From the NCBI RefSeq assembly GCF_004010195.1, contig NC_057757.1:1180033-1244032 (forward strand): DNA of 64,000 nt, in the 5' to 3' direction. Each line of letters starts with the position of its first letter. Within the stretch, counting starts at the first letter, position 1. The stretch comes from Chiloscyllium plagiosum. Lineage: Eukaryota. The position numbers were made by a program, and so were the translations under genes. The notes under the pieces are model-generated. The model ran no database searches, was not told the origin of the DNA, and worked only from the letters and a program-made list of their open reading frames with translations. Below are positions 5,767 through 62,460 of this stretch, piece after piece.

Positions 5767-5968
5767 GTGGATGCTGGAGATCTATAATAAAAGTGTAACC
5801 GGTGAAACTCAGTAGATCTGCCAACATCTGTGGAAAGAAAGCAGAGTTAATGTTTCGGGTTCGGTGATTCTTCATCAGAACTGCTTTGAAGAAGAGTCAC
5901 AGGTCTTGAAACATTAACTCTGTTTTCTACGCATTGATGTTGCCAGATCACCTGAGTTCCACCAACAG
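5767..5968. mobile_element. Penelope-derived fold-back element (family B) with degenerate hammerhead motifs
   Basis: Imperfect inverted arms; the minus strand reads CTGATGA...GAAACATT at about 5848-5880. Confidence 0.7.
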
Positions 5969-6195
5969 AATCTGGGTTGTCTCAAAGGCCCAGCAGACTC
6001 ATTCCCAGGATAGTAGGACTGTCCTATAAAGAGAGAGGAGACAAACAAAGCCTGTGTTCTCTTGGGTTTTGAAGAGTGAGAGATGATTTCATTGAAACCT
6101 CCAAAAATGCTTAAAGGGATAGACAGGGTGAATACAGATGTTTCTCCTGATTGGAAAACTTGAGGCATGATTTTTTTTAAAAGAAGGGAGTAGTA

Positions 6196-6335
6196 CAGAG
6201 GAACTACGATTATCTGGAATTCGATTATCCGAATTTTGGATTATCCAGCAAAATCGCTAAACTGTACTATCTGGCATTCGATTATCCGACAAAACACTCC
6301 TTGCCCGTGTCGTTCGGATAATCGAAGTTCCACTG
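6196..6335. mobile_element. Tc1/mariner/pogo-type MITE
   Basis: TIRs CAGAGGAACTACGATTATC / GATAATCGAAGTTCCACTG, TA on both sides, internal CGATTATCC repeats. Confidence 0.85.
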
Positions 6336-6729
6336 TATTTGGGACCAAATGAGGAGAAATGTTATCACTTAGAGTTGTAAATCTTTGGAATTCTCTACTC
6401 TAGGGAGCTGTGGAAGGTCAGTTTTGAGTAGGTTTTTAAAGTTAAGGTTGACAGACTATCGCTTACCAATGGCTTAAAGGGTTATGAAGGTATTATGGGT
6501 AAAAGGCATTGAATAACCATAATCAAACACAATCAGATTGAATAGTGGAGCAGGGCTTTTGCCAGAAACGTCGATTTTCCTGCTCCTCGGATGCTGCCTG
6601 ACCTGCTGTGCTTTTCCAGCACCACTCTAAAATGATAGACCAATCAGTTTAATGTCATTAGTAGGTAAAATAGTGGAATTCCTTCTCAAAGCAGTTCTGA
6701 TGAAGAACGACCTACTTAAGGAATTCCTA

Positions 6730-7042
6730 CTTTTCCCTAGGATGGGGGTGTCCGGAACTAGAGGGCATATATTTAGGGTGAGAGGGGAAAGATATAAAAG
6801 GGACCTAAGGGGCAACTTTTTCACACAGAGGGTGGTGCGTGTATGGACTGAGTTGCCAGAGGAAGTGGTGGAGGCTGGTACATTTGCAACATTTAAATAC
6901 ATCTGGGTATATGAATAGGAAGGGTTTAGAGGGTTATGGGCCAAGTGCTGGCAAATGGGACTAGATTAATTCAGAATATCTGGTCGACATGGATGAGTTG
7001 GACCGAAGGGTCTGTTTCCGTGCTGTACATCTCTATGACTCC
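6730..7042 (+). mobile_element. CR1 3' end fragment
   Basis: RGHIFRVRGERYKRDLRGNFFTQRVVRVW followed by the CR1 3' UTR and CTCTATGACTC tail. Confidence 0.9.
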
Positions 7043-7664: not shown

Positions 7665-7943
7665 ATGCCAACGTTATATAGTTAAAATGAGGCAATTTCA
7701 TTATTCAAATACAGACTGTGATAGTGGTAATTAAAGGGCAAACAATGGGCAAATATTCCTAGTTCGTGTACAGGAGAATTTCCCACAGGAGTATACATCC
7801 AATCCATATCCAGCACGTGTCTAGACCTGGTTCTTGGAAATGAGATAGGCTAAGTAGATCAAGTGTCACAAGGTTTGTGAAGGTTTGTAGCTCAGGTTGA
7901 GGTTTAGGGTGTAGGTTTGCTCGCTGAGCTGTAGGTTTGATAT

Positions 7944-7983
7944 CCAGACGTTTCATTACCTGGCTAGGTAACATCATCAGTGG
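7944..7983 (-). ncRNA. Minimal type-I hammerhead ribozyme motif (intact core)
   Basis: Reverse complement: CCA CTGATGA TGTTACCT-agcc-AGGTAAT GAAAC GTC TGG = stem I, core, stem II, GAAA, GUC cleavage triplet. Confidence 0.85.
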
Positions 7984-8788
7984 CGACCTCCAAGTGAAGC
8001 GGAGCTGTTGTCTCCTGCTTTCTATTTATATCTTTCTCCTGGATGTGGTTCCTGGGGTTTGTGGCGATGTCATTTTTTGTGGCTAGCTGGTGTTCGTGTA
8101 TCCTGGTGGCTAACTTTCTTCCTGTTTGTCCTAGGTAGTGTTTGTGGCAGTCCTTGCATGGAATTTTATAGATGACGTTGGTTTTGTCCATGGGTTGTAC
8201 TGGGTCTTTTAAGTTTGTTAGTTTTTGTTTGAGAGTGTTGGTGGGTTTGTGTGCTACTAGGATTCCGAGGGGTCTCAGTAGTCTGGCTGTCATTTCTGAA
8301 ACTTCTTTGATGTATGGTAAGGTGGTTAGGGTTTCTGGCTGTGTTTTGTCTGCTTGTCATGGTTTGTTCTTGAAGAATCTGGGCACTGTATTTTTTGAGT
8401 ATCCGATCTTCTTGAATACGTTGTATAGGTGGTTCTCCTCTGTTTTTCGAAGTTTGTCTGTGCTGCAGTGTGTGGTGGCTCGTTGGAATAGTGTTCTGAT
8501 ACAGCTTCATTTGTGTGTGTTGGGATGGTTGCTGGTGTAGTTGAGTATTTGGTCAGTGTTTGTCGGTTTTCTGGTTTGTAATTCTCCCTTGTCCTTTCTT
8601 TCTACTGTGACGTCCAGAAATGCACTCCAACCACTACGCCATAAACAAGCACATAGATCTAGATGCCATCTATCAACTCCTCAGAAAACGAACAGGAAAT
8701 GACATCACCACAAACCCCAGGAACCCCATCCAGGAGAAAGTTATAAATAGAAAACAGGAGACAACAGCTTCACTTCACTTGGAGGTCG

Positions 8789-8828
8789 CCACTGATGATG
8801 TTACCTAGCCAGGTAATTAAACGTCTGG
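8789..8828 (+). ncRNA. Hammerhead motif copy with core mutation (GAAA>TAAA at 8818)
   Basis: CCA CTGATGA TGTTACCT agcc AGGTAAT TAAAC GTC TGG. Confidence 0.7.
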
Positions 8829-9390
8829 ATATCAAACCTACAGCTCAGCGAGCAAATCTACACCCTAGATCAAGTGTCAGTTGGGGAACATTTAGGAGAC
8901 AGTGATTATTGTATTGTAAGGTTTAGGATTATAATGTGGAAATACAGTGGTCAATGCGAAATTAGAAACATTCATTGGCAATAGACTGACTTTAATGGGG
9001 CAAGAACAGAGCTGGGCTGGATAGACTGGAATGAAAAGTTGGCGGGATAAACTGTAACTGAGCAATGGACCATCCTCAAAGAGGAAATTATTTGAGTACG
9101 GTTAAAGTATATTCCTTCCAAAGGGAAAGTCAAACAAATCCAAGTTTCCTGAATGACAAAAGGGATAGAAATTGTTGTAGAGAAGAAAATGTTTACTTAT
9201 GATGGGTGTCTAGTAGAAAATATAATTGAGAAATGAGGAATGCAGAAGATTTAAAGGGAGGTGAAAAGGCCTATTACAGAAGCAAAGAGGAATTATGAGA
9301 AAAGACTGGCAGCCAACATAAAGGAGAATGATAAAATCTTCCATAAGCATCATATATAAATATATATGTATATAAAGAAATATTAGGATT

Positions 9391-9756
9391 TTAGCGAGTT
9401 TTGAGAAGATTCGTAGCTCAGGTTGAGGTTCTGGATGTAGGTTTGCTCGCTGAGCTGGAAGGTTCATTTTAGGACACATCCATCTTAGGACAAGCCAAAC
9501 AGAAACATGCATGAGAATTCCTGGAAGCAATGCATTCCAACTGGTTAGACCCCATCTACCACCCCTTGAGAAAATGAACAGGAAATGGCATCACCACAGG
9601 AAATGACATCATCAACCCAAAGAAACCCAAACATATACATAGAAAGCAGGAATCATGTACAGTGTTTCTCCTGAGGCCCGCTTGAGGGTGTTACCTAGTA
9701 GATTGATGAAACGTCTGGCAATGAACCTTCCAGTTCAGCGAGCAAACCTACATCCA
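9391..9756. mobile_element. Penelope fold-back fragment, related to the 7869 family
   Basis: GGATGTAGGTTTGCTCGCTGA ... TCAGCGAGCAAACCTACATCC inverted pair; imperfect TSD AAA(T/G)ATTAGGATT. Confidence 0.8.
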
Positions 9757-10789: not shown

Positions 10790-12490
10790 ATAGAGTTTTA
10801 TAGCATGGAAAGAAACCCATTTGTCCACCATGTTCATGCAAATCAGCAGACATTCATCAATTCCCCACATAACTACACTTTAAGTATCTTGAGAGTGCCT
10901 GCATCTACCACTATGAGTACCACTATCTACAGTGAATTCCCAATACTTACTATCCTCTAGGTGAAACATTTTCTCCTCAGATCCTCTCTAAATGTTCTGC
11001 TCCTGATCATGAAAATCCTCCCACAACCTCCACCCCACCATTATTTCCACCTCGACATGGGGGAAATGTTTCAAACCTTATCTATGACCTTTATAATGTT
11101 GCCCCTCAGCCTTCCTCGCTCTCAGGAAAACAACACCAGCCTAAATAGTTTACCTTCAGAGCGAAAACACTCCAACCCAGGCAACATTCTGATGAATCTC
11201 CTCTGCACCTTTCCTGTGCAGTTTCATTCTCACCACAATGAGCAGAACTGCACACAGTACTCCAGCTGATGCCTAACTAATGTTATATATAGGTCTGTAT
11301 TCACCTCTTTGCTCTTATATTCAATGCCCTGACTAATAAAGGTAAATTTCCCATATGTCTTCTTAACCATCTTACCTACATGCCCTGCTGCTGTCAAAAA
11401 TAAGAGAGTTTACAAACCAAGGTCCCTCTGATCCTCTGTACGCCTCAGGACTGTTTCATTCACGGTGTTAGTCCTCCTAAAATGCATTCCCTCACTTTTC
11501 AGAATTAAATTCCAGTTCCCACTGTTTAGCCCATCTGACAAGCCTTGACTGTGTCATCCCTTGGTGTAAGGGCTTCCTCCTCGATATTTACCACATGACC
11601 AATTTTCAGGCAAATTTACTGATTATACCTCCTACATTCATTTCGAGATCATTTATGTGCACAACAAACAGCCAGAAACCCAACATTGATTCCTGTGAAA
11701 TGCCACTGGACACAAGCTTCCAATTACAAAACACCATTCAACAATTTGATGTCTGCTTCTTGACATCAAAGTCAAAAACAGTGGTGCTGGAAAAGCACAG
11801 CCAGTCAGGAAGTATCCAAGGAGCAGGAGAGTCAACATTTCGAGCATAAGCCTTTCATCAGGAATGCACATCTTTTTCAGCACCACACTTTTTGACTCTG
11901 ATTTCCAGCATCACTTTCTCCTTCCTGACATCAAGCCAATTATGGATCCCATTCATCAAATTACCCTGGATCCCATGGGCTCTTGGCTTCTTAACCAGTT
12001 TGTCATGCAAGACCTTGTCAAAATCCTTACTGACGTCCACGTGGACTACATCAACTGCACTACCTCATCCATATATCTAGCCAGCTCCTCAAAACAATTC
12101 TTAGACATAATCTCTCCCTGACAAAGTCATTCTGACTATCCAAGGTTATTCCTTGTCAAGTGTAGGTTAATTTTGTCAGAATTAATTCCCTCAATTTTTT
12201 TTCTGTCGTTTCCCTACCACTGATGTCGGATTCACTGGCCTGTCGTTTCCTGGTTCATCCCTACCATTTTTCTTGAATAATGACATCATATGAGCTGTCT
12301 TTCAATTCCGTGGCCAGAGACGATTCATGTCAGAGTACTGTAATCTTCTACCTTGCCTCCCACAGAACCCTGGGACACATCATCTGGGCCTGGGAATTTA
12401 TATACCTTTGAGCCACCTAATACTTACACCCTCTCAGTACTAATTTGGTCAAGTATATCATTGTCCGTCTCCCTGATTTCTCTACCTGAC
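10790..12490 (-). mobile_element. Decayed CR1 LINE
   Basis: MDVSKDFDKVLHDKLV...IHNWL; 3' tail near 10790. Confidence 0.75.
11770..11921. mobile_element. Penelope-derived short element (family A), partial fold-back
   Basis: GTGGTGCTGGAAAAGCACAG...CTTTCATCAGG; TSD TTC(T/C)TGACATCAA on both sides. Confidence 0.75.
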
Positions 12491-13064: not shown

Positions 13065-13590
13065 TCTTATCTGTCAGTCAGAAGGTTGTGGGATCAAGTT
13101 CCAGTCCAGGAGTTTGGGCACACAATCACGCCTGATACTTCCAGTATTCTATTGAGGGAGTGCTGTACGATTAAAAGTAGTCTCTTTCAGATGAACCACT
13201 AAAGCAAGACCAAACGTGCTGTCTCAGATCAAGAGAATTCAAATCAGGCCTGCAACTCTGTTTCTCTCTCCACAGATACTGCAAGACTCACTGAGTTTCT
13301 CTAGTACTCCGTTTTAACCCCCATTTGTTCCCTGGGTGGATATAAAAGATCCCATTGTGTTATTGTGTGGAAGAGCAGGATGTTCCTGGTTGGTGTGTTG
13401 CCCAATATCACTGAAATACATTATTTGGTCATTATCACATTGTTGTCTGAGATTTTGTTATGGTCAGATTTGCTGGCACATTTCTTATATGGTAGCAGTG
13501 ACAGCATTCAAATTTTGCGAAAGTTGAACAGATTGATAACCATTTGTATTATACAGTAAAAGACTTTCAGATAGTTGCAAGGGTTTTCTT
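13065..13590 (+). mobile_element. DeuSINE (SacSINE1/AmnSINE1-like), old
   Basis: tRNA-like head, GAGGGAGTGCTG, GTGGATATAAAAGATCCCAT, ATTATTTGGTCATTATCACATTG Deu-domain motifs (from recall). Confidence 0.7.
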
Positions 13591-18450: not shown

Positions 18451-18489
18451 TTTTAATTTCCCACTCAGATTCAAATAAAATCACTCACT

Positions 18490-19599: not shown

Positions 19600-19812
19600 G
19601 AGGCAAAAGTGGGTACTGCAGATACTGGAGATTAGAGCCAAGATCAGAGTGGTGCTGGAAAAGCACAGCAAGGCAGGCAGCATCCGAGGAGCAGGAAGAT
19701 CGATGTTTCGGGCAAAAGCCTGATGAAGGGCTTTTACCCGAAACATCGATTTTTTCCTGCTCCTCAGATGCTGTCTGACCTGCTGTGCTTTTCCAGCACC
19801 ACTCTAATCTTG
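19600..19812. mobile_element. Penelope-derived hairpin element (family A) with hammerhead motif
   Basis: Inverted arms; CTGATGA AGGGCTTTTACCC GAAAC at 19720; 13-bp TSD AAACTACAAGCAC at 19587-19599 and 19813-19825. Confidence 0.88.
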
Positions 19813-22696: not shown

Positions 22697-22795
22697 CTCC
22701 AGATGAAGGGCTTTTGCCTGAACCGTTGATTCTCCTGCTCCTCAGATGCTGCCTGACCAGCTGTGCTTTTCCAGTGCCACACTCTGGACTCCAGA
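22697..22795. mobile_element. Penelope-derived short element (family A), single arm
   Basis: GATGAAGGGCTTTTGCCTGAA...GATGCTGCCTGACC...CTTTTCCAG. Confidence 0.7.
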
Positions 22796-23034
22796 TTCCC
22801 CAGACTGGCATCTTTCACATTAGCCCCATGTGGTATTCTGGTAGTGTCCCTACCTTTTGAACCAGGAGGACGTGTTCAAATTCCACCTGCTCCAGAGGTG
22901 TGTAATAACATCTCTGAATAGGTTTATCCGAAAAAATAAACTTCTGGTTAACCGTCAAAGGAACCTTTGTTTCTCACACTGACAGTGAAACAGACACTAT
23001 AAGTGGAATTTCTTCCATCCTTTACCAATTTGAC

Positions 23035-24619: not shown

Positions 24620-24750
24620 AATTCCTGATGAAGAGCTTTTGCCCGAAACATTGATTCTCCTGCTCCTCGGATGCTGCCTGACCTGCTGTGTTTTTCCAGC
24701 ACCACTCTAATCTCGACTCTAATCTCCAGCATCTGCAGTCCTGACTTTCG
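24620..24750. mobile_element. Penelope-derived short element (family A)
   Basis: CCTGATGAAGAGCTTTTGCCCGAAACATTG hammerhead-like start. Confidence 0.8.
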
Positions 24751-25176
24751 CCACAATCTGAACTGTCCTTGCCATATAAGTGCAGTGGTTTCGAGAGCAA
24801 ATCAGAGGCTACAAAATACTGCAGCAGGTAACCTGACATCCCAACGCCTGTCCGTCATCCACTGGTCACAAGTCAGGAGTGTGATGGAATATTCCCCACT
24901 GCCCGGATGAATGCAGCTCCAACAATGCTCAAGAAAGTTGACACCTTGCAGTTCAAAACAACTTGATTGGTGCAACATCTACAAACACCCACTCCCTCCA
25001 CTGATGCTCAGTAGCAGCACTGTGTACCGTCTACAAGATACACAGCAGAAATTGACCAAGGCTCTTTAGACAGCACCTTCCAAGCCCAGAACCATTTCTG
25101 TCTCTTGGGAACACAGGTGCCTGCAAGTTACCCTCCAGGCCACTCATCATCCTGACTTGAAAATATATTGCTATTC

Positions 25177-25338
25177 TTTGCAAGGTTTGTAGCTCAGGTT
25201 GAGGTTTAGGGTGTAGGCTTGCTCACTCAGCTGTAGATTTGATATCCAGGCAGTGGGGAATATTCCATCACACTCCTGATTTGTGACCAGTAGATGATGG
25301 ATATCAAACCTACAGTTCAGCGAGCAAACCTACACCCC
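25177..25338. mobile_element. Penelope terminal-repeat hairpin with a captured 49-nt loop
   Basis: Arms match the 7869 family; 12-bp TSD ATATTGCTATTC at 25165-25176 and 25339-25350. Confidence 0.88.
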
Positions 25339-26344: not shown

Positions 26345-27060
26345 ATGACCACAGAGTAGGCTTTTACTGTGTATCTAACCTGTGTTCTACCGACCCTAAA
26401 AGTCATGATGTACAGGATTTGGAGATGCCGGTGTTGGACTGGGATGTACAAAGTTAAAAATCACACACCAGGTTATAGTCCAACAGGTTTAATTGATTAG
26501 ATTTTTTTTTGATTAGATTAGATTAGATTACATTACAGTGTGGAAACAGGCCCTTCGGCCCAACAAGTCCACACCGACCCGCCGAAGCGACTAGCTTTCG
26601 GAGCGCCACTCCTTCATCAGGTGATTGTGGAGGAGACAGTGTTGGACTGGGGTCGACAAAGTTAAAAATCACACAACAACAGGTTATAGTCCAATAGGGT
26701 TATTTGGAAGAACTAGCTTTGGAGCACTGCTCCTTCATCAGGTAGCTCAGCATCGCTCTGTAGGCTAGTACTTCCAATAAACCTGTTGGACTATAACCTG
26801 GTGTTGTGTGACTTGTAACTTTACCCTAAGACTGTTTAGCAGGACTGTGTAGAGGGGAGCTTTACTCTGTATCTAAACACTTGCTGTCCTGTCCTGGGAG
26901 TGTTTGATGGGGTCATTGTAGAGGAAACTTTATGCTGTACACGGCTTTACTATTTAACCTGTGCTGCAGCTGCCCTCAGTGTTTGATGGGACAGTAGATA
27001 GGGAGCTATACTCTGTTTCTAAACTGTCTATTATTTGCCCTGGAGATGTGGTGGAACTGT
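26345..27060. repeat. Degenerate about 65-bp minisatellite (GTAGAGGGAGCTTTACTCTGTATCTAAC...GTGTTTGATGGGACA), interrupted by a Penelope-derived insertion
   Basis: Units near 26350, 26848, 26917 and 26994. Confidence 0.7.
26415..26822. mobile_element. Penelope-derived element (family C): two tandem terminal repeats plus one inverted copy, with hammerhead motifs
   Basis: GTGTTGGACTGGG...CAGGTTATAGTCCAA twice, inverted at about 26765-26822; minus strand 26590-26622 reads AC CTGATGA AGGAG-tggcg-CTCC GAAAG CTA GT. Confidence 0.8.
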
Positions 27061-44200: not shown

Positions 44201-46297
44201 CTATGAAGAGAGAGAAGTGCAATGGGATTTATGTGAGGATGATACAGAGGTATGGGAAGAGAGCAGAACAATATTTAATCTCTCAATCAGCATTACTAAA
44301 AGAGATTAATTTACTGTTTGAAAGTTCAAAGAATCCTGAGAAGTCATTTGGGTCTTGAAATGTTAATTTTGTTTCTCTCTCCACAGATGCTGCCAAGCTT
44401 GTTGAGTTTCTTCAGCATTGTCTGTTTTTATTTCAGATGTCCAACATTTGCGTTATTTGACTTTGGTTTTACTGCGTATTGACTTGTTCTTAACGAGACC
44501 TTGGAGGGAATACAGCTCAAGTTTACTGCACTAACACTGTAACTAAGTGTTCAATTATGAGGCTAGACTGCATTGTATTATCTTAGCAACAAGTGAATGA
44601 GGAGTGTTGAGATGCTTCTAATATTAAAAGAATTTGATAAGTTGATAATGAGAAACAAACTCCTTTGTTGGGGAAATGAAGAAAATGGGGATATTCTAAT
44701 CACAGCTAAGATATTTGAAGTCAAGCTTTTTGTAAATTGTCGTAGAAATCAGGCATTCTCTCCATCTCTCTCCTCTTGGGATCAGTTGGAGTTTTAAGAC
44801 CTAAGCTTGGTTGTTTTATCATGAACTCTTCTGCCAGTGGTAACTGAGACTTGATTACACTACCAAATCTCTTAGTTTCTATTGTACCATTTAGTTCATA
44901 TTGCCTACCTTCAGTCTCCCTGTCAAAGTTAATAATATTGCACTTGCAATATGGCCTCCTAAGGTCTGCTGCTATCATTGTTGACTACAATAAAGCCAAT
45001 AAAGAGAAATGGCCCAGAGGTGAATAAATGCAGTTGAGATGTAAATCAGCCATGACCTAACTTTATGGAAAAGCAGGCATAGTGAATAGTAACCTTCTTT
45101 TCTCCCTAATGTTCCTAGGACTAATTAGATGTTAGCACGAGACCTTGCTTCCAACTCCTATCTGAAGTAGATAACTCAAAGCAGTATTAAATTATTTGCA
45201 TTTGAGGACATTAATCAATTCTATGCTTACTTAGTTACAAGCAGAGATAGAATATTCCAGCAGAGAAGGTGTCACAGAGCCTTTCGGCCAGGTTACTAGG
45301 GTGATTTCCCCTGCTCCTCTTCAGGTTCTCTCCTCTTCCTGAGGTTTGGATGTACCAGTTACTTCTATTATCAGCAGCAAGGTTTAACTGCTAACATTGG
45401 GATGTTAATTGGTAAGGTCCCAATCTTACTCAAAGTGACTGCCCACAAGTTCACCTCATCAGGGGAATGCCCTGAATGTGACGCAGATCTAGACGTTGTC
45501 TGCCTTTAGAGCTGCTGTCTACTTGTTAAGGGTCACTTGATTCTTCCATTGTTCCAGATGGCATGCACTTTAAGGACAGTTGTACTAACACCAATGAAGC
45601 TGATGCTGCCCTGACTTAGTTTAGTTAATCAGCCAAGTTGAGATGTCAGGATGTGCCAATGTGTACACTACCAGCTGCTTGAAGGCAAAGAGAGAGCTGC
45701 GTCAGCTCAATCCGCATTCAAAACCAGAGGGTACGGCCAGAAATTACTCATTTCTATCACTGACATGGTGCCAACAAGTATTCTAAGCTCAGCTCAGAGG
45801 GAAAATGGGACCTTGGTTCATTTGAAAAGTGGCACTTGTGACAATGCAACTGTCTGATTTTTGTGCTCAGATTTCTGAAGTGAGACTTGAATGCAGAAAC
45901 CAGAGTGCAACCAACTGATTCATGGTTAACAGGCCTGAAAAACTGAAAGGGTAAAGGAGGTGAGGATTTAAGATCCTGGTAAAGTGTTAGCTAAAATAGA
46001 AGCCAATGCATTGATAAGGAAGAGTGCACAGAATAGAATGGAATATCCTTCATTGTCAGAATGATATAATTGCGGTATTGGATGCAATTGTGTTCACAGC
46101 AGTGCTGACAAAGGAAGACTGATCAAATAAGGAAAGAAGGGGAAAGAAAAACTTGTACTTTTAGAGTATCTTTCACTACTTAAGGACCCCTGGAAGCCCT
46201 TCATACTAATAAAACACTTTTGAAACGTGGCCACTGATTTAAAGTAGAAATGGTGATTTGCATAAAGTAAGATCCTGCAAACAGCAATGAAATAATT

Positions 46298-48425
46298 AGA
46301 GTCACAGAGTCATAGAGATGTACAGAACGGAAACAGACCCTTCAGCCCAACCCGTCCATGCCGACCAGATATCCCAACCCAATCTAGGCCCACCTGCCAG
46401 CACCCAGCCCATATCCCTCCAAACTCTTCCTATTCATATACCCATCCAGATGCCTTTTAAATGTTGCAATTGTACCAGCCTCCACCACTTCCTCTGGCAG
46501 CTCATTCCATACACGTACCACCCTCTGTGTGAAAAAGTTGCCCCTTAGGTCTCTTTTATATCTTTCCCCTCTCACCCTAAACCTATGCCCTCTAGTTCTG
46601 GCCTCCCCCACCCCAGGGAAACAATTTGCCTATTTACCCTATCCATGCTCCTCATGATTTTATAAACCTCTATGGGGTCACCCCTCAGCCTCCAACGCTC
46701 CAGGGAAAACAGCCCTAGCCTGTTCAGCCTCTCCCTATAGCTCAAATCTTCCAACCCTGGCAACGTCCTTGTAAATCTTTTCTGAAGCCTTTCAGGTTTC
46801 ACAACACCTTTCCGATAGGAAGGAGACCAGAATTGCACACAATATTCCAACAGTGGCCTAACCAATGTCCTGTACAGCTGCAACATGACCTCTCAACTCC
46901 TGTACTCAATACTCTGACCAATAAAGGAAAGCATACCAAACGCCTTCTTCACTATCATATTTACCTGTGACTCCACTTTCAAGGAACTATGAACCTGCAC
47001 TCCAAGGACTATTTGTTCAGCAACACTCCCTAGGACCTTACCATTAAGTGTGTAAGTCCTGCTAAGATTTGCTTTTCCAAAATGCAGCACCTCGCATTTA
47101 TCTAAATTATACTCCATCTGCCACTTCTCAGCCCATTGGCCCATCTCGTCAGGATCCTGTTATAATCTGAGGTAACCCTCTTCACTGTCCACTACACCAC
47201 CAATTTTGGTGTTATCTGCAAACTTACTAACTATACCTCTTATGCTCACACCCAAATCATTTATATAAATGATGAAAAGTAGTGGACCCAGCCCCGATCC
47301 TTGTGGCACTCCACTGGTCACAGGCCTCCAGTCTGAAAAACAACCCTCCACAACCATCCTCTGTCTTCTACCTTTTGAGCCAGTTCTATATCCAAATGGC
47401 TAGTTCTCCCTGTATTCCATGAGATCTAGGACCATGAGATCTAGGAGAAAGTGAGGACTGCAGATGCTGGAGATCAGAGCTGAAAAATGTGTTGCTGGAA
47501 AAATGCAGCAAGTCAGGCAGCATCCAAGGAGCAGGAGAATTGACGTTTTGGGCATAAGCCCTTCTTCAGGAATTCTTCCTTGAGATCTAACCTTGCTAAC
47601 CAGTCTCCCATGGGGAACCTTGTCGAACACCTTACTGAAGTCCACATAGATCACATCTACCACTCGGCCCTCATCAATCCTCTTTGTTACTTCTTCAAAC
47701 ACTATCAAGTTAGTGAGATATGATTTCCCACGCACAAAGTCATGTTGACTATCTCTAATCAGTCCTTTGCCATTCCAAAAAAATGTACATCCTGTCCCTC
47801 AGGATTCCCTCCAACAACTTGCCCACCACCGACGCCAGGCTCACTGGTCCATTCATTCCTGATGAAGGGCTTTTACCCAAAATGTCAATTTTCCTGCTCC
47901 TCGGATGCTGCCTGACTCTTGTGCTTTTCCAGCAGCACTCTAATCTAGGCTCTGATCTCCATCATCTGCAGTCCTCACTTTTGCCTCACTGGTCTATAGT
48001 TCTCTGGCTTGTCCTTACCGCCTTTCTTAAACAGTGGCACCACATTAGCCAACCTCCAGTCTTCTGGCACCTCACCTGTGACTATCGATGATACGAATAT
48101 CTCAGCAATGTACCCAGCAATCACTTCTCTAGCTTCCCACAGAGCTCTAGGGTACACCTGATCAGGTCCTGGGGATTTATCCACTTCTATGCATTTCAAG
48201 ACATCCAGAATTTACTCCTCTGTAATATGGACATTTTTCAAGATGTCACCATCTATTTCCCCACATTCTATATCTTCCATGTCCTTTTCCACTGTAAATA
48301 CTGATGCAAAATACTCGTTTAGTATCTCTCCCATCTCCTGTGGCTCCACACACAGGCCGCCTTGCTGATCTTTAAGGGGCCTATCCTTTTCCTAGTTACC
48401 CTTTTCTCTTTAATGTATTTGTAAA
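46298..48425 (-). mobile_element. CR1 (HER1-like) LINE inserted in a DeuSINE remnant, carrying two family-A Penelope insertions (47444-47580, 47850-47984)
   Basis: SGVPQGSGLGPLLF, DFSKVFDKVPH, DKSPGPDQVYPR; TSDs TGAGATCTA and CTCACTGGTC. Confidence 0.93.
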
Positions 48426-51345: not shown

Positions 51346-54300
51346 GTAAGATAGTGGAATTAGATGACCACCAATATCTTGCCTCCTCTTGTTCTTTCCC
51401 TTTTTAGGGGAAGAGCCAGAGGATGACTACTTCCTCTTTGTTTTAATTTTTTTTGATCCTTAACTAAGAAGTTAACAATTACTACTCTTCAGGTAACCAA
51501 GCACCATTTCCTCTACTCCACCCACCTGTACTATATGCTAAAGGAACCCAGGCTGGCTATAGTGAGGACTAGTTCAGACATTGCTCTCATTGAGTGCCAT
51601 TACCCCAGGTAATACTCCCCAGCGCTGTTCTATGTTCTGGTTTTCAGTGTAAACTGGAAGTTGATGGCCTTTTCCTTCTGGTAGGAATGATGATGTCAAT
51701 AGTCAAGCTGTGTGGCCCACCTGGCTCCCCTTCAAATCTCTCTTGAAGAGAAGAGGATTTCTATCATATTCTTTGCGACAGATGAATGGTAAGGCCCACG
51801 ATGCTTGTTCTAAACTATAGCTGGAATTTTAAGCTATGATTGAGTTTAAACTGTGGTAGCTGTAACATCTTTGACTCTTTCATCCACTTTCTAGATAAGT
51901 GGGATGCAGAGCGTGTATCAAATGTCTACTATCTGGGAGAGCTCATCCATATTGAGGCCTCTGTCATGACTATAGACCATGAGCCCTTGAGACTTTATGT
52001 TGATAGCTGTGTGGCGACAGTGACTCCAGACAAGGACTCCACTCCCAGATACCAACTTATTGATTTCAATGGGTGAGGGTATGCACAGTTAGTCTTGGAT
52101 AAAGCTTGTTATTTAGTCTTACTAGTACACTGATGCATTCTGTCTACTTCCTTCCAGTTGCCTGATGGATAGTCACGCTAGTGATTCCTGTTCTTCTTTT
52201 GTGTCTCCAAGAGTTCATCAGGACAAACTCCAGATCAGCCTGTGTGCATTCAGATTCTCCAAGGGAAAGAACTTGGTAAGGTCATCTGAGTTAACACCTC
52301 TGGAGCAACGTACTATTGGGATTGTTCTCCAATTTGAAGTTGAGGGGTTTAATTGAACAGCTCAAAATTCAGGGGTTTGTCGAGCAAGGAGAAACTGTTT
52401 CACTATTCAGAAGTAGAAAGTGAGGACTGTGGGTGCTGGAGATCAGCATTGTGTGTGGTGCTGGGAAAAGCCCAAAAGTCAGGCAGTGTCCGAGGAGCAG
52501 GAGAGTTGACATTTTGGGTATAAGTTCACTATTCTGAAGCCTCTTAACCAAAGGAAACAGATCTGATCAAGAATGGAGTGGCTGAAAAGATGAGCAGCTT
52601 CAACAGTAATTTTCAAAAGCTAATTAGACTAAATTACCTACAGTATGGAAACAGGCCCTTCAGCCCAACAAGTCCACACCAGCTCTCCAAATAGTAACCC
52701 ACCCAGACCCATTCCCCTTCCCTATATTTATCCCTGACTAATGCATCTAACACTATGGGCAATTTAGCATAGTCAATTCACCTGACATCCACACCTTTTG
52801 GATTGTGGGAGGAAACCAGAGCACCTGAAGGAGACCGATGCAGACATGGGGAGAACGTGCAAACTCCACAGTCACCCGAGGCAGGAATTGAACCTGGGTC
52901 CCTGGTGCTGAGGCAACCGTGCTAACTACTGAGACACCATGCCACCCATAGATACTGGAGAGAAAAGTAAACTTACAGGACTTTACCAGTCACACATTCC
53001 TAATGTTAGCTTGCTGCTGAGAGCTGGCGTGGACTTAGTGCTATGAAGCAGTTTTTTTCTGTGCTATGTTAGTCATACTGTTGCTAGATTTGGGGAGACT
53101 TCCTGATTATGCAGATTGCTTGAGTTTAAAGGATCCTGTAATAGAGGGCGGATGGGAGTGTAACTCCACTAACACAAGTGTAGGCAGCATGTAGAGATGA
53201 TTGAGTGCTGATATAGGTGGTTAGAAGGCTTGTCCCAATCTTAAACATTGTAAAATTGCCTTAGCTGTCAGGCCCTCTGTTCAATTTGCATTATGCTACC
53301 TGCAGAGCAGCTTCTCCATTATTAACCACGGGCAGCCCCTCTGGATCTATGAAAATAAAAGTTAAAGCTTCTAACAATGTACTATTAAGGCTGAGTGTCA
53401 GAATGCCATTCATGAAACTCATAAAAATACTAAGTTCAAGAGTTTAATGTTGAAAACTTATTTTTTATTAATAATGTCAAAGTTAACCCTTCCAAGGCTT
53501 CACTAAAAATTTCAAGGCGTGAACTTAGCAGAAGGCAGAGCAAAAGCATTTTTGTAATGACCTCCGCTGTGATAACTTCAGAAAGGTCGCAAGTATCTTT
53601 CTTGAAATTGTAAGAACAGATGGTAATATGTTTCTTAATCAATATCAGATGGCTGGTCAAAGTAGTCCAATAGGGAGTGTTTGCTAAACAGTAATGGATG
53701 TGATTCACCTTTTTCAAAATCCCAGCCCTCTTCTGATCATTTCAGATAAGGATATTGAAACAGACCATGTATGTCCTCCAAAGGTGTTTGTGACAATTGT
53801 GGTTCCCACTCTTCCCATTATAGAAAGGATGTGGAAGCTTTGGAAAGGGTTCAGAGATTTATCAGGATGTTGCCTGATAGGAGGGAAGGCCTCATGAGGA
53901 AAGATTGAGGGACTTGAGGCTGTTTTTGTTAGAGGAAGGTTGAGAGGTGACTCAATTGAGACATAAGATGGAGGGTTGGAAAGGTTGGACAGTGAGAGCC
54001 TTTTTCCTCAGATGGTGATGGCTAGCATGAAGGAACATAGCTTTAAATTGAGCGGTAATAGATAGTCAGAGTAGTAGGGGCGTGGAATGCACTGCCTGCA
54101 ACAGTAGTAGACTCATAACTTTAAGGGCATTTAAACAATTATTGGATAGACATATGGTCAGAATGGAATAGTGTAGGTTAAATGGGCTTCAGATTGGTTC
54201 CACAGGTCGTTGCAACATCAAAGGGACTATACTGCACTAGAATGTTCTATGGTGTTAAGGCCCATGGAATATTGAAAATGGGCTATTTGAATGCAACACT

Positions 54301-57124
54301 AATTTCAAGTGGTCAGGCTGAGTTGTGAGGTTTCACCTGTGAGCCACACCTTGCCTGCTTCCCCCTTTGGCAAAAACGAGAGTGGTATTTTCACCTCCAG
54401 GTTCTGGTCACTATTTTGTCCCCTCCATCTAATTCTGCATGCGTCTGTCCCAAATCATCAATATTTGGGGGGAGGGAGGGATCCCATGCAATGGGAGCCA
54501 TCACGTTTGAGTTGGATGTGTTGTCTAAATTACCACAAACCACTGTTTGGCCACTTACATTTCACTATCAAATACTGAAACATTATTTAAATGTTTCACA
54601 TAGCAAACAAGACCCTTCAAGTTGGCAAGTTAAGCCTCATAATTCTGCATAACTATTGCATAAATGTGTGCTACATATATACCTTCCTCCAGATCATTTA
54701 TGTATAGATAGTCATCTGCAAACTTGCTAATCAGACCAAGATTGGCAGAGTAGCAGCTAGTGAAGGGACTGTCTGAATACAGCAGAACATAGATTGGAGA
54801 GTTGGGTGGAGAAATGGCAGATGGAGTTAAATTTGGGCAAATGAGGTGATGCATTTTGGAAGATCCAATTCAAGAGCGAACTAGACAGAAAAAGTCTGGG
54901 AGGGAGATTATGGAGAGAGATCTGGGTGTTCAGGTCCATTGTTCCCTGGTGGCAACACTCGTCATTAGTAGTCAAAAAGCATATGGCATGCTTTCCTTCC
55001 TTGGACGGGGTATTGAGTACAAGAGTTGGCAGGTCATGTTACAGTTGTATAGGACTTTGGTTTGGCCACATCTGGAATACTGTGTATAATTCTGGTCACT
55101 GTATTCCAAAGCGTCCACCTCCTTTTTGGTGGAGGGTGCAGAGGAGGTTCACCAGGATGTTGCCTGGTATGGAGGGTGCTAGCTATGAAGAGGTTGAGTA
55201 GATTAGATTTCTTTCATTAGAAAGATGGAGTTGGGGGGGGGGGGTGAAATCCTGATTTGAGGTCTACAAAATCATGAGGTATAGGCAGGGTGGATGGCAA
55301 GAAGCTTTTTCCCAGAATGGGGGACTCCATTACTAGGAGAAAGTGAGGTCTGCAGACGCTGGAGATGTGCCCGAAACGTCGAATCTTCTGTTCCCTAGAT
55401 GCTGCCTGACCTGCTGTGCTGTTCCAGCAATAAAGTTTCAGACTCCATTACTAGCATCACATCTTCAAAGTAAGAGGGGAAAATTTAAGGGAGGTATGGT
55501 GGAAATTCTTTAGACATTGCTAATGCAGGTGGGCACGATAGCATCATTCTAATGTATCTAGACAGATACATGAATGGGCAAGGAGCAGAGGGAAACAGAT
55601 CCTTAGAAAATAAGGTGACAAGTTTAGATGAGGATCTGGATTGGTGCAGGGTTGGTGGGCTGAAGGGCCTGTTCTTGTGATGTAATTTTCTTTGCCACTT
55701 AATTGGTTAATAGAACATTTAGCTAGGAGTCCAACCAACAGTGTCTGTCTTGATGTTCAGAGTTTGATACTTGTGTAGTGTTCTTGAGCTTCTGCTACTG
55801 AAGACTCCTGAACTGATTACTTATTGGAGTTTTGTCTTGTAATGTTAGTGACATTGTTGATCCTTTAGATTCATTCATCTACAGCATTCATTTAAACTTC
55901 TGGAGTTAAGTCCAGACCTTGATAGCTTCTCTTCTTTGTTACATTTGGCATTGACTCTGTTCACAATGCAATTTTCCAGGAATTAATCCCTTTGCAGAAG
56001 GAATGTCTGGAGGTAATCTGAATTGTCCATTTGACATGTGGCAGCAGGTTATCAAGCAGTTACCACCTCTCCCCCCATCAGCTTGCTTCCCCTCCCTCAT
56101 CCCACAATGGTTAATTAGCATACTGTCCTTAGGCAATTTCTCCTTGTCCTTTTTTGTCTCTGGAAAGTTTATTTCAGAATGTTATTGCTGATTCTTTTAA
56201 TCTGAATAGTTAATGTTAAGTCTACAGTATCACAGATGGCCTCTGATTTGAGACTTCCATTGCAGATTTTCATCACCTGTAATTTAAAAGTCACTGAGAT
56301 AGATGGAGTACCAGATTCAGTCAACAAAGCTTGTTTCTTCCAAAAACTGGACAACGAGTAAGTGCCTTACCTTTAGCTTCTCTGCAAATTACTGATGGCA
56401 AGCTGAGAAATTTCCCTTTTCTATAGGTGGATGCCTGTTGAGGGATTGAATGAAATTTGTCGATGCTGTGACCATGGGAACTGCAGAGGTAGCAGAAGAA
56501 ATGTTCTCTTTCAGCAGAGAGCAGCTGGTATGTATTCCTGGGGGCAAATTATTTTGCTGGCTTACCTTGCTGTTTCAAGTTAACTTTCACTTGATGGCTG
56601 ATGGTTTAATCTGAGTTGTTGTACCTTTGGTAAGGTTGAGAAGGCATCTCTTATGGATAATAATTGTCACTCTGCATTGCCAAACCTGTCATCCAGCCAA
56701 CTGGCTCCCAACTTCATGTTGGATTGATGAACACTTTAGCATTTCAACTGTTAAATGTCATGTATAAACACTGTTGTTTAGTGTCTCTGTCTCAGGAAGA
56801 CCAACTAAGGAAGGCAGGTGAAATTCAGATGGGACCCTTGGTAATCCTGGCTTCTAGAATGCAAAGAGAAAACCAGAATATATCAAATGGGCAAGGAACT
56901 CCTGAGCACAGTAAGGATCTAGAATCACCTGGCTTACTTGAACCTTCCCTGTATTAAGAGCTAACCAATGATTTTTTTTTTCCCTTTTCCCAGATGGTGT
57001 GGACCTGATGATTGTAGTGGGAGTCGTGGGGGCTGTGGCTCTGCTGCTGTCAGCCTTGGTGGTAGGGGGAGTTGTAATCTGTGGATCTCTGACTATTAAC
57101 AAGCTGGTCAAGCCCTCCATTTAG
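50983..57124 (+). CDS. zp3: Zona pellucida sperm-binding protein 3-like gene, 9 coding exons, 1332 nt / 443 aa
   Basis: join(50983-51345,51493-51608,51685-51788,51895-52072,52158-52275,56266-56357,56427-56527,56782-56910,56994-57124); all introns GT-AG with matching phases and no internal stop; IECHYPR, PTWLPF, DSCVAT, NGCLMD, ITCNLK, NKACFF, ICRCCDHGNC, EHP GPLVIL, C-terminal TM. Confidence 0.93.
51493..51608 (+). CDS. zp3: ZP3-like exon 2
   Basis: VTKHHFLYSTHLYY...IVRT...IECHYP; ttcag / gtaata. Confidence 0.92.
51685..51788 (+). CDS. zp3: ZP3-like exon 3
   Basis: NDDVNSQAVWPTWLPF...YSLRQMN; tag / gtaagg. Confidence 0.92.
51895..52072 (+). CDS. zp3: ZP3-like exon 4
   Basis: WDAERVSNVYYLGELIHIEASV...LYVDSCVAT...IDFN. 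Confidence 0.95.
52158..52275 (+). CDS. zp3: ZP3-like exon 5
   Basis: CLMDSHASDSCSSFVSPR...KLQISLCAFRF; ttccag / gtaagg. Confidence 0.93.
52414..52524. mobile_element. Penelope-derived short element (family A) in zp3 intron 5
   Basis: TSD TTCACTATTC(A/T)GAAG on both sides. Confidence 0.8.
52625..52948 (-). mobile_element. HE1 V-SINE in zp3 intron 5
   Basis: Family motifs. Confidence 0.88.
53815..54250 (+). mobile_element. CR1 3' fragment in zp3 intron 5
   Basis: Closely resembles 4380-4870. Confidence 0.85.
54675..55690 (+). mobile_element. CR1 fragment with inverted 5' piece and a nested Penelope mini-hairpin (55337-55440)
   Basis: LYRTLVWPHLEYCV; TSD GACTCCATTACTAG at 55323-55336 and 55441-55454. 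Confidence 0.85.
56266..56357 (+). CDS. zp3: ZP3-like exon 6
   Basis: IFITCNLKVT...PDSVNKACFF; tgcag / gtaagt. Confidence 0.94.
56427..56527 (+). CDS. zp3: ZP3-like exon 7
   Basis: WMPVEGLNEICRCCDHGNC (ZP3-specific Cys cluster). Confidence 0.94.
56782..56910 (+). CDS. zp3: ZP3-like exon 8 (EHP)
   Basis: VSLSQEDQLRKAGEIQMGPLVIL; acceptor chosen by phase (a nearby cag at 56795 is out of frame). Confidence 0.75.
56994..57124 (+). CDS. zp3: ZP3-like exon 9 (transmembrane segment, stop)
   Basis: Strong polypyrimidine acceptor; LMIVVGVVGAVALLLSALVVGGVVICG; TAG at 57122-57124. Confidence 0.88.
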
Positions 57125-58143: not shown

Positions 58144-58149
58144 CTATCT

Positions 58150-60860
58150 AACCCTTATTGAAAGTAGTGGTTTAGACTCTATTACTCTGATAAAATTTCA
58201 CAGGATCACTATTGGAGAAGAACGTTCTCAATCCTAAATAGCCTGCCCAGATCATTCCACAAAACATTTGCATTTTTGTTGTATGCTGGCTGTGGTTTCA
58301 CCAGGTCCCTGCAGCAAGGTGTCCCTGTTCTTGTATTCCAATCCTCTTGCTAGGAAGGCCAGGAAATCATTCACCTTTTATCCAGTGCTCCTGCATACTT
58401 CCTTTTGGTAATGGTGTACAAGGGTATTCTGGTAGTGTTGCCCTATCTCTTTCCTAATCTGTTGCCATTTTGGAAAATTGCTTTTCTGTGTTGCTGCCAA
58501 AGTGGATAACTGCCCATATGTACACATTATACACCAACTCTGAGTATTTGCTCACTCTCTCAACATGTCTAACTCACACTGAAGCATCTCTGCATCTTGC
58601 TCACAGTTCAACCTTCCATCCAGCTTTGTGTTGGCTGCAAATATGAAAGTATTACCTTTTTTGCTGTTCTCGTCTGGGGGTCCAAGCACCGATCCCTGTT
58701 GTCCCACCTTGTGGCTGGCTCTCATGCAGTAAATGACCTGTTCCCTTCCTGCCAGTTAGTTCTTAACAAACATCAGTATGTTGCCCCCAATCAGTGTTTT
58801 AATTTTAAATGTTGGACACCTGTTTGTGACCTTGTCAAACTCCTGGCAATAAGTAAACTGCATCCACTAGTTTTTCCTCTGACTAACTCTACTAGTTACA
58901 GCCTCTATTTCCAGTGATTTATCAAGCATGATTTCCCTTGTGTACATCCATGCTAATTCTGTCCAATCCTGTCACTTTTCCAACTGCTTCGCTATTAATC
59001 CATTGTAATGGACTCTGGCATTTTCTCTACTGATGGCAGGTTAACCAGCCTATAATTCCCTAACTTTTCTTCCTGCCTTTTTTAAATAGTAGGGTTACAT
59101 TAGCCAACTGTGTAGGTACCGTTATAGAGTCTTGGAGGGTGACCCACTAATGCATCTATTTATTTCTAGGGCCACTCTGGAATGTAGATTCAGGCCCTAA
59201 GAATTTGGCCTTTAATCCCATTACTTTCCCAACCGTTTCTGTACTAACTGATTTCCTTCAGTTCCCCTTTAGATCTAGTATTCAAAATGTTTTGGATGTT
59301 ATTCGTTATAGTCAATCGTACAGCACGAAAACTGACTCTTTGGTCCAACCAGTCCATCCTGACCATAGTCCCACACTAAACTAGTCTCACCAGCCTGCAC
59401 CTGGTCCACATCCCTCCAAACCCTTCCTACTAATGTAATTATCAAGATGTCTCTTAAATGTTGTAACTGTACATGCATCTGGGTGGCACAGTGGTTAGCA
59501 CCGCTGCATCACAGCGCCCAAGACCCGGGTTCAGTTCCCGCCTCAGGCGACTGTCTGTGTGGAGTTTGCACGTTCTCCCCGTGTCTGCGTGGGTTTCCTC
59601 CGGGTGCTCCGGTTTCCTCCCACAGTCCAAAGATGTGCAGGTCAGGTGAATTGGCCAGGCTAAATTGTCCCATAGTGTTAGGTAAGGGGTAAATGTAGGG
59701 GTATGGGTGGGTTGCGCTTCGGCGGGGCGGTGTGGACTTGTTGGGCCGAAGGGCCTGTTTCCACACTGTAAGTAATCTAATCTAATCTGCCATTTCCTCT
59801 GGCACTTAATTCCACACATAAACCACTAGGGGGCATGTTTTCTCCTCATGTCCTTTTTTAAATCTTTCTCTCATTAAATATGCGTCGGAGTCTTGAAATC
59901 CCCCATTCTAGGGAAGTGACACTTGTTCACTTTATATATACATACCTCAAATTTTATAAATGTGTTCTGCTTTGTAAAGATGACAAAATATACTAACTTT
60001 ATTCCCCATCCAACACCAACATGACTTCCACTAACCTCTCTTCCTGTTCACATAAAAAAGCTTCTCTAAGTATGCTCCCTGCAAGCTCTCACTTAGCTGA
60101 TTTTCTTTTCAATCACACCTTCTGTTAAATTCTAAACTGTTCCCAGCCCTCAGGTCTGCTCTCTTTGGCCAATTTGTATGCCCTTTCCTTGGATTAAAGT
60201 GTCCCTAGTTTCCCTTGATGGCTGTGCTATAGCCACCTTCTCTATTTCATATATGCTAAACAGATGACCAATCACTGCAGGTCTACCATGCACTCTAAAC
60301 GTTTGCTGTTGCCCATTTGCCATCATCCCTTAACTAATGATCCCAATCTATCATAAACAGCTTATGCCTCATAATGCACATAGATGTCGTCTCCTGCTTA
60401 GGTTCAGGGCCATTGTCTCAGAATCCACTGTCATAGTCCATGTTAATGAAAGTTTGTGATAATATATCAATCTGTAATGAGCCCTTCAACAAAATTGCTG
60501 ACTATTCCTTTCTCACTGTACAATGTGAAGACTTGTTTTTGAGTTGCTTCCTCAACATATTGGTGCAGAAAAGCATCCAATGCACATGTCAAAAATTTCT
60601 TTTCTATGGCATGCTTTTACTGATTTGATTTGTCTTGATACATTTGTAGATTAAGTCACTCAAATATTACCTTTATTGCTGTGGCTCTAATTAATACCTT
60701 CCCCACCATTGCTCTCACTTTCTGCCCCTTGATGTTTGGAAGCTCTACCCATACAGATTCAACTTCACTGGAGCTAATCTTTTCTCATGACAGTATTAAT
60801 GTCTTTAACCAGCAATGCTATCCCAACTCCTTTCCCTCCTGTTCCTGAAAACCATAGATA
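58150..60860 (-). mobile_element. Very old CR1 remnants
   Basis: Degenerate RT motifs on the minus strand (e.g. ATCAAGCATGATTTCCCTT, CCAGCCTATAATTCCC). Confidence 0.55.
59481..59787 (+). mobile_element. HE1 V-SINE, young
   Basis: Nearly the same as 7346-7664. Confidence 0.95.
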
Positions 60861-62249
60861 TTCAGTTATCCATCTGGTTCACTAATGTTCTTTAGGGAAG
60901 GAAACTGCCATCTTACCTGGAGTCAATAAGGACTGCAAGATGCTGGAAACGAGAGTCAATAGATCTGGAGCTGGAGAAGCGCAGCAGGTCAGACCACATC
61001 AGAGCAAGCATGTTGGGCTGGAACCCTTCATCAGGTCCTGGTGAAGGGTCATTGCCTGTCCTGCTTTGATGCTAATCTGACCTGTGTTTCTGCAGCTCCA
61101 CATCTATTGCCATCCTCCCTGGTCTGGCCAAATGAGACTATACAGCCACTGCAAATGGTTGACTCTTAAGTGCCTGATTTGGGATGGGCAGTAAATATTG
61201 GCCTTGCCATTGACATCCTCATCCTGTGACTAAATAAGAAAGAGTTCCCATTCCTGGTCACCCTATAACCACGACTCTGTAATCCTAACTATATCTTTTT
61301 ATATCCATTTACAAAACTAATTCATTCACTTTATTACAAATGCTCTGTGCATAATGCCTTGACATTTACTCCTGTTCCCATTATTTAGCACTGGCTTGAA
61401 TTATCTGCCGATTACTTTATTTCCCATTCTCGTTATGCAACATGGAAACAGACCCTTCAGTCCAACTTATCCATGCTGACCAAATTTCCCCAACTAGACT
61501 TAGTCCCATATGTCTGTTTGGCTCCTATCCCTTTCCTATTCATGCACCTGTCCAAATGTCTTTCGATGTTGTACATGTACCTGCATCTACCACTTCCTCT
61601 GGCAGTTCGTTTCACATACGGACCCCTGTGTGTGGAAAAAGCTGCCCCCTAAGGTCCCTTTTAAAGTGAATAGTGGACAAGCTTTGGGGTGTCAGGAGGC
61701 AAGTTTCCTCCTGCAGGATTCCTCGCCACAGACCTGCTCTTGAAGCCACTGTATGTGTGGCCAGTTGACTCTGTTTCTGGTTAATGGTAATCTCAGGGTG
61801 GTGTTAGTGGGGAGTTCAGTGATGGTAATACCACTAATTATAAAAAAAATGCAAAAGTTAGATTCTCATTGAAAATGGTATGTGCGGCATGAATCTTATC
61901 TGCCACTTGTAATCCCAGCCCTAGATGTTGTTCAGGTTTTGCAACATTTTTATCATGCGCAGCTTCAGTATCTGAACAGTTGCAAATGGTGCTGAGCATT
62001 GCAATCATCAGCAAACATCCCCCACTTCTGATCATCTCGTGAAGAGAATTGTACTGAGTCACAGTGGAAAGCTTTGCCTTGCAAGCAATACAGGCAGATC
62101 ACATAGTTAAGTAGCATAGATAGGAAATAATAGGTAAACAGTGACAAAAACAAAAACACAAGTAAAAGCGAATGTTAAGAGTTTGAATCCATTCAGTATT
62201 CTAACAACAATAGAGTGGAAACTGTTGCAAAACTGGTTGGTATGTGTGT

Positions 62250-62460
62250 TCAGAGCTGAAAATGTGTTGCTGGAAAAGCGCAGCAGGTCAGGCAGCATCC
62301 AGGGAACAGGAGAATCGACGTTTCGGGCATAAGCCCTTCTTCAGGCTTATGCCCGAAACGTCGATTCTCCTGTTCCCTGGATGCTGCCTGACCTGCTGCG
62401 CTTTTCCAGCAACACATTTTCAGCTCTGATCTCCAGCATCTGCAGACCTCACTTTCTCCT
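62250..62460. mobile_element. Penelope-derived perfect hairpin (family A)
   Basis: 86-bp perfect inverted arms 62250-62335 / 62344-62429; GTGTGTTCAG duplicated at the flanks. Confidence 0.92.
62314..62345 (-). ncRNA. Minimal hammerhead core motif
   Basis: Reverse complement C CTGAAGA AGGGC-ttat-GCCC GAAAC GTC GAT; stem I weak. Confidence 0.65.

Follow-up and report, generated by a model that had tools for sequence, protein, structure and literature searches.

Short hammerhead-bearing copies of Penelope-like element ends in a 64-kb stretch of the Chiloscyllium plagiosum genome

We analysed a stretch of 64,000 nucleotides from the shark Chiloscyllium plagiosum (assembly GCF_004010195.1, contig NC_057757.1, positions 1,180,033 to 1,244,032 of the forward strand; hereafter, the window), animal DNA in which relics of short and long interspersed elements (SINEs and LINEs) are plentiful. 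A sequence-only reading of the window had proposed a population of short fold-back insertions in four families, A to D, with little or no coding sequence and a shared hammerhead ribozyme motif. All 22 sites that it listed were recovered with the family sequence assigned to them, using blastn and nhmmer family profiles, and we found a stub near 6690 and two further B-like copies, at 13254 and 34790. Together, the 24 elements make up ~4.6 kb, or 7% of the window (Table 1). By sequence, each of the 22 listed sites is the 3′ end of a Penelope-like element (PLE). The proposed fold-back structure stood for 11 of the 24, which are two-armed and in every case head-to-head, but not for 12 single arms or for the copy at 60925, whose inverted arm is a 12-nt stub. 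The family sequences were as described, but the A profile matches B copies and vice versa, so that A and B are one lineage and the lineages number three, not four. The D copy at 9391 is not non-coding, as it carries ~38 codons of an open reading frame (ORF) end. A scan for the A/B motif gave 0 loci in a viral collection and 81 in a metagenome collection, none of them homologous outside the motif. The dense population of short PLE end-copies is real; its anatomy is mostly already published, and it does not constitute a new class of element.

Canonical endonuclease-containing (EN+) PLE insertions comprise a pseudo-long terminal repeat (pLTR), an adjacent inverted 5′-truncated copy, a 30-40 bp tail at one end and a target-site duplication (TSD) (PMC3846280; PMC8557442; here and below, papers are cited for those sections available to us). 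The copies in the window resemble them in their head-to-head arms, single tail, TSDs and one partial tandem. In 11 of 11 two-armed elements there is an inverted 5′-truncated copy and a tail at one end only, one arm being 31-43 nt longer than the other at its 3′ end. The 3′ ends form two discrete tail termini, 78-100 nt downstream of the predicted hammerhead cut (positions are given on the strand that reads the hammerhead, the first base after NUH being +1). Direct repeats scoring at least 10 flank 11 of 22 elements, compared with 2.3% of 300 random position pairs, in agreement with the claim that many copies have TSDs. These are 10-18 bp long, versus 8-10 bp in rotifer PLE examples (PMC3846280; PMC8557442), and 64% AT, versus 57% window-wide. 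At 47415-47444 the TSD of the A copy is partly doubled on the tail side (a 15-nt extra duplication). The copies differ from canonical EN+ PLEs in that most are 100-210 bp long, and in that the 5′ ends of family A meet a hard wall at nucleotide 1 of the hammerhead. The inverted-arm and tail anatomy, the TSDs and the coding parent of family D support the PLE origin that had been proposed.

That parent, placed at 7869 by the sequence-only reading, was found to encode a reverse transcriptase (RT) C-terminus and GIY-YIG sequence. The ORF fragment has two in-frame stops and an internal deletion of the ORF end, and is 91% identical over 185 aa to a protein, P0001, that carries PF00078 and PF26215. 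The Pfam match to GIY-YIG (E 0.0055) is under the curated cut-off because the domain is half deleted in this copy; with the stops read through, the fragment gave only a weak match to a domain of unknown function. [quoted passage not shown] This is the arrangement of Penelope/Poseidon, with no extra zinc-finger linker of the Neptune or Nematis kind visible in the D translation; the RT core is absent from the window. A Chiloscyllium punctatum protein shares 95% identity over 93 aa with the family D protein, whose next matches come from other carpet sharks. P0008, a C. punctatum protein annotated as a MAP3K7 isoform, includes a family-D-like PLE EN region, either by exonisation or as an artefact of the gene model. 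An open frame of 36 codons runs from the D hammerhead core through the tail; likewise, the ORF of the Anolis carolinensis Poseidon PAc begins at stem II (PMC11167929).

We compared 7860-8340 with two DNA runs (X1, 9,868 contigs; X10, 9,342 contigs) and two RNA runs, of which one gave 582 matching reads and the other (X22) 0. Relative to 7942, the depth at 8002, 8113 and 8276 was 79, 64 and 33% in X1 and 71, 62 and 29% in X10, figures in which summed contig depth does not equal copy number and subfamily divergence also ends alignments (for example, at 7931). Among 18 of the 838 loose-end rows, ends at 7869, 7874 and 7905 have heterogeneous AT-rich flanks and are tailed and tail-less termini beyond the window. 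The five opposite-strand joints seen among 15 of the 19 joint rows are scattered, three near the hammerhead and two in the ORF. Depth passes the cut and continues into the ORF, with no abrupt fall at the cut or near 8000. Family D is an ordinary 5′-truncation series of a PLE with an RT/GIY-YIG parent, an outcome that the sequence-only reading had itself named as contradicting its proposal. The D pLTR has, at 8004-8030 (-) and 8742-8779 (+), a TATA-like word ~29 nt before an initiator-like word, ~20 nt upstream of the core. A pile-up of D copies at the start near 8000 predicted from these words was considered and rejected, as depth is nearly flat across 7962-8029.

The hammerhead motif said to be shared by the families is, by sequence, a clear minimal type-I PLE hammerhead at the level of the family, but has decayed in most single copies; the full core pattern is kept in 8 of 23 arms examined. 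The CUGANGA/GAAA core, a bulge before stem II, a palindromic helix III and a short stem I are intact in C26620 and D7980, and A and B have them at family level; the second family C unit lacks one core G. A strict structural descriptor gave 2 matches in the window, the same C26620 and D7980, versus 0 in 60 shuffles. The bare CTGANGA..GAAA pattern gave 24 matches against a shuffle mean of 11.1 and maximum of 24 and, being only ~2-fold over shuffles, was dropped as evidence. In an Rfam scan of the window, no hammerhead family appeared at E<=5; the only matches were miRNA models below threshold on the hairpins and a single tmRNA fragment. The bulge, the palindromic helix III and, in A-C, a G10.1-C11.1 pair are as in metazoan PLE hammerheads (PMC4209133). 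That study describes paired motifs 100-700 bp apart on opposite strands and takes single motifs to be probable truncated PLEs; the sections of it that were covered contain no breakpoint mapping and do not name cartilaginous fishes. The motif lies at or next to the fold-back point, as had been claimed, in 10 of 11 two-armed elements (the exception is 7869), but the junctions of A, B and C are upstream of the cut rather than at it. Stem II of family D has 7 bp, more than in A. In the consensus stem-loop downstream of the A hammerhead, two-sided changes occur in 1 of 20 pairs, so that covariation support is absent. Family B has, just past the cut, a pyrimidine tract ending in CAG and followed by ATG (42730-42765, 43290-43325 and 44355-44390), which resembles a 3′ splice site, and the frame of this ATG runs uninterrupted through the tail in several A and B copies.

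Family A arms start at -32 (four arms), -30, -29 (three), -27, -26, -21, -19 (two), -17, -16, -13, -5, +36 and +67 (19 arms of 13 insertions, including the divergent copy at 60925; the arm at 52414, whose alignment ran into the TSD, was set at -17, and that of 19600 at -19). Hence 17 of 19 start between -32 and -5, none within 4 nt of the cut and none past -32. The clustering of breakpoints at the hammerhead, which the sequence-only reading had suggested checking, is non-random in A (binomial p 2e-11, or 1e-7 when the first 40 nt of each arm are discounted; the null is a constant stopping rate, and two arms of the same insertion do not count as independent). The 5′ strand of stem I begins with position -32. 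Since the A references themselves end at -32, the wall rests on the flanks upstream of it, which share 23% mean identity (15 pairs of 6 flanks), as random sequences do, and on the TSDs at 47444 and 47850, no more than 2-5 nt away from the start. In family B, 6 of 8 arms start from -27 to -40, one at -12 and one, at 13254, ambiguously at +1; family C arms start from -18 to about -33, none of the three at the cut. A arms and most B and C arms keep CUGANGA, stem II and GAAA, the portion that cleavage removes. A cleaved RNA begins at +1 and cannot template this portion, so cleavage does not set the ends of A-C, against the proposal that it defines the ends of the units.

Taking together the observed anatomy, TSDs, two discrete 3′ termini, D coding parent and 5′-end positions, we consider it rather probable that A-D are short PLE 3′-end copies, and that those of A-C have their inner ends upstream of the cut, likely at the start of the template RNA. 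The copies would be inserted at AT-rich sites by the PLE's own RT/GIY-YIG protein, the agent also named by the sequence-only reading and, on the present evidence, a likely one. The endonuclease would nick both target strands 10-18 bp apart, and each nick would prime a cDNA, one at the tail end and the other at a site 31-43 nt upstream. The two cDNAs would run to the RNA 5′ end and be joined head-to-head by microhomology or through a locally templated bridge; success on one strand only would leave a single arm. Family A RNA may start at the first nucleotide of the hammerhead (~-32), in which case a cDNA begun at the 5′-proximal tail would run off after ~130 nt. The ribozyme would be carried along mostly uncleaved, though cleavage may define a minority of D ends.

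The geometry of the fold-backs bears on this scheme. The tail-less arm is nested in the tailed arm in 6 of 11 two-armed elements. In the other five (9391, 11770, 19600, 55337 and 62250) it reaches further 5′ than the tailed arm, and at 55337 the arms do not overlap at all. We infer that independent priming from both target strands, at two start sites, accounts for 11 of 11. In the D copy at 25177 the arms are separated by an insert (25244-25301), a 58-nt inverted copy, 93% identical, of host DNA at 24851-24908, ~300 bp upstream; it has microhomology at both joints and reads as a locally templated bridge. The copies at 19600 and 62250 share the same -29/-19 junction with 2-nt microhomology (19700-19740 and 62325-62365) and differ in internal variants. 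Two-strand priming fits the behaviour of the Anolis Poseidon protein (PMC11167929), which extends both strands in vitro and is a predicted dimer; its two internal RT starts bound the tail, and ribozyme cleavage is not needed. PAc and the window families are alike in having two termini, AT-rich flanks and uncleaved RNA as template, with 3′ ends 78-100 nt past the cut here versus 85-92 in PAc (starts at +111-118, cut at +26). PAc was tested in vitro, whereas the present families are known from sequence; the main text of that paper, as available, has no analysis of head-to-head copies or of 5′-end clustering. In L1 twin priming, a second primer on the opposite target strand makes an inverted 5′ segment that is joined by microhomology. 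The copy at 55337 shares its non-overlapping geometry; unlike in L1, the arms overlap in 10 of 11 elements and both start at fixed internal RNA sites. Such overlap requires two templates or two passes over one.

Several observations count against the explanation by run-off from uncleaved RNA. The A wall rests on 19 arms from 13 insertions, a sample compatible with read-through of up to ~16%. An RNA start at -32 in A is putative, our best guess from the wall and an initiator-like motif. D depth has no step near the predicted start at 8000, so run-off is not evident in that family. A tblastn search of the window with the D protein, and short-query protein and HMMER searches, which are weak, yielded neither a coding parent nor a promoter for A, B or C. 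Three of six D arms (both of 25177 and the left one of 9391) have their ends at -1 to +5, and D depth falls by 10.5% (X1) and 9.9% (X10) across 7942-7949, an interval that spans the cut.

The explanation that survives best beside this one, which we regard as possible but doubtful, changes only the source RNA and leaves the insertion step as above: A/B would be a self-propagating, non-autonomous unit of ~130 nt, PLE-dependent and SINE-like, with an internal promoter and mobilised in trans. Four A arms that differ in internal variants start exactly at -32, with no sequence from further upstream in any of them; 13 insertions in 64 kb show no trace of an ORF; and the parent searches came back empty, their sole HMMER candidate for an A parent, P0022, being an unrelated repeat-rich protein. 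There are precedents in the internal promoter of Drosophila virilis Penelope (PMC2377424) and in putative non-autonomous Chlamys PLEs (PMC8557442). However, run-off from the 5′ end of a full-length mRNA yields the same product, and weak protein searches with short queries, in one window, cannot show that a parent is absent.

Somewhat less probable still is a stall of RT within the hammerhead fold, or at a dimer of hammerheads by which two templates are held together, so that cDNAs end in the 5′ half of the motif irrespective of where the RNA starts. Thirteen of the 17 clustered A ends do lie inside the motif (-30 to -5) rather than at -32, and the -29/-19 junction of 19600 and 62250 is a recurrent one. 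A stall should leak, yet 0 of 17 ends are beyond -32, and in D, in spite of its longer stem II, most depth passes through.

Snap-back, in which one cDNA (or an antisense template, as proposed for PLE inverted copies in PMC3846280) primes itself, is an improbable source of the fold-backs. It would suit the six nested elements, and microhomologies at stem II junctions could prime a hairpin. A snap-back arm must lie within the first cDNA, so the five elements whose further-reaching arm is tail-less, among them 55337 with its separate arms, are beyond the simple form of this process.

We give even less credence to ribozyme cleavage as the general determinant of unit ends. It has in its favour the three D arms at the cut, the possible +1 start at 13254 and the ~10% depth step in both DNA runs. 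Against it are the A-C starts, at most 1 of 8 B arms being at the cut; the ends of 25177 are blurred by microhomology with the bridging insert, and since the next X10 interval drops further, by 14%, the step at 7942-7949 is not specific to the cut. Nor was there a pile-up of RNA ends at D among the 582 reads, a weak test in a single-cell polyA library, and cleavage was dispensable in PMC11167929, a study in which no read was found to end at the cut. As a minor route that defines some family D ends, cleavage is a more tenable, if tentative, suggestion.

The least probable account is that the copies are non-LTR retrozymes, tandem units that self-cleave to circles and are re-inserted by rolling-circle RT. 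Like retrozymes (PMC7229834; bioRxiv 10.64898/2026.07.22.740005), they are non-coding and pLTR-related, with a type-I hammerhead and larger TSDs; retrozymes originate from PLE pLTRs, and a cartilaginous fish is among their hosts (bioRxiv 10.64898/2026.07.22.740005), and C26415 has two direct ~124-nt units, each starting at a hammerhead. But retrozymes form head-to-tail arrays processed to circles, whereas 23 of the 24 elements are single or head-to-head with units that end at the PLE tail, the one direct dimer has a unit without a core G, and 0 of 19 A arms start at the cut. A circular template for A was also rejected: the six A flanks carry no tail sequence upstream of -32, where multi-round copying of a circle should have left it. 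The suggestion of retrozyme-like units therefore failed on tandem arrays, save for that dimer.

The elements are listed in Table 1.

Table 1. Coordinates of the PLE end-copies in the window and of features of the family D parent
Feature	Position	Strand	Details
Family B, two-armed	5767..5963		tailed arm (-) from about -35/-40, tail-less arm (+) from about -27
Family A, single arm	6552..6630	+	starts in stem II (-21); tail-less end
Family D parent	7869..8865		tailed arm (-) 7869-8621: ORF fragment, pLTR, hammerhead, tail
Family D parent, inverted tail-less arm	8621-8866	+	14-bp TSD, 7855-7868 and 8866-8879
Family D ORF fragment, broken	8078..8623	-	RT C-terminus/thumb and first half of GIY-YIG
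Family D minimal type-I hammerhead	7944..7983	-	core start 7980; predicted cut between 7947 and 7946
Family D, two-armed	9391..9756		tailed arm from about -1 to +5; tail-less arm from -245 in ORF end; 13-bp TSD
Family A, two-armed	11770..11916		tail-less arm from -32, tailed arm from about +36/+43; 18-bp TSD with 2 mismatches
B-like single arm, added	13254..13306	+	best alignment starts at +1; ambiguous, second reference gives -32
Family A, two-armed	19600..19812		junction -19/-29, 2-nt microhomology; 13-bp TSD
Family A, single arm	22698..22813	+	from -30
Family A, unit-length single arm	24621..24752	+	-32 to +100
Family D, two-armed	25177..25338		both arms end at -1 to +5 of cut; 58-nt bridge; 12-bp TSD
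Family C	26415..26822		two direct ~124-nt hammerhead units (-) and inverted tail-less arm (+)
Family A, two-armed	29702..29886		-27 / -5
Family B, single arm	33637..33766	+	
B-like single arm, added	34790..34881	+	from about -29
Family A, two-armed	36781..36981		-26 / -16; 15-bp TSD
Family B, single arm	42698..42800	+	
Family B, single arm	43286..43403	+	from about -12
Family B, single arm	44329..44451	+	
Family A, unit-length single arm	47443..47575	-	-32/-34 to +100; TSD abuts 5′ end
Family A, unit-length single arm	47855..47985	+	-32 to +100; 10-bp TSD
Family A, single arm	52414..52524	-	from about -17; 15-bp TSD
Family A, two-armed, arms non-overlapping	55337..55440		tail only (+67 to +99) and -13 to about +62; 14-bp TSD
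Divergent A-like arm	60929..61047	-	from -29; 12-nt inverted stub
Family A, two-armed	62250..62460		junction -29/-19; arms ~96% complementary; 16-bp TSD

A SINE fragment with a short-repeat tail (26497-26590) is inserted a few bases past the predicted cut of the intact C hammerhead. The stub at 6682-6707, 27 nt and 96% identical to the 5′ end of an arm of the B copy at 5767, sits amid short inverted and direct repeats and has no family sequence downstream of it. Elsewhere in the window there are two tandem arrays, at 1-972 and 18402-19041, with periods of 26 bp and 80 bp, and a 138-aa frame (28614-29030, -) that by eye resembles a decayed LTR-retrotransposon integrase fragment.

What the PLE hammerhead does, and how the inverted-arm-plus-tail structure arises, are open questions (PMC8557442; PMC11167929). 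We found no literature on these shark families, on 5′-end clustering at the hammerhead or on twin priming by PLEs; the search covered sources other than subscription papers, Repbase and Dfam. The points without a counterpart in it are the family A wall at the first nucleotide of the ribozyme and the 5 of 11 fold-backs beyond snap-back. With 24 copies in 64 kb, and with TSDs, a shark assembly offers a very large set of natural junctions, in which counts can address two questions: whether 5′ ends lie at the start of the RNA, at the cut or within the fold, and whether or not arms are primed independently. The answers within the window (A ends upstream of the cut; independent priming needed in 5 of 11) agree with the in vitro results of PMC11167929 and disfavour ribozyme-defined ends. 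More speculatively, and with the odds clearly against it, A/B could be a very abundant, unit-length (~130-nt) 'Penelope SINE' of hammerhead, stem-loop and tail. Its transcription would begin at nucleotide 1 of the ribozyme, and a dimeric PLE protein would insert it, priming the two target strands from two RNAs that might pair via the palindromic helix III. If so, the ribozyme would serve as a structural and boundary element rather than a cutter, and the junctions in shark genomes would suffice to settle how the inverted repeats and tails of PLEs are formed.

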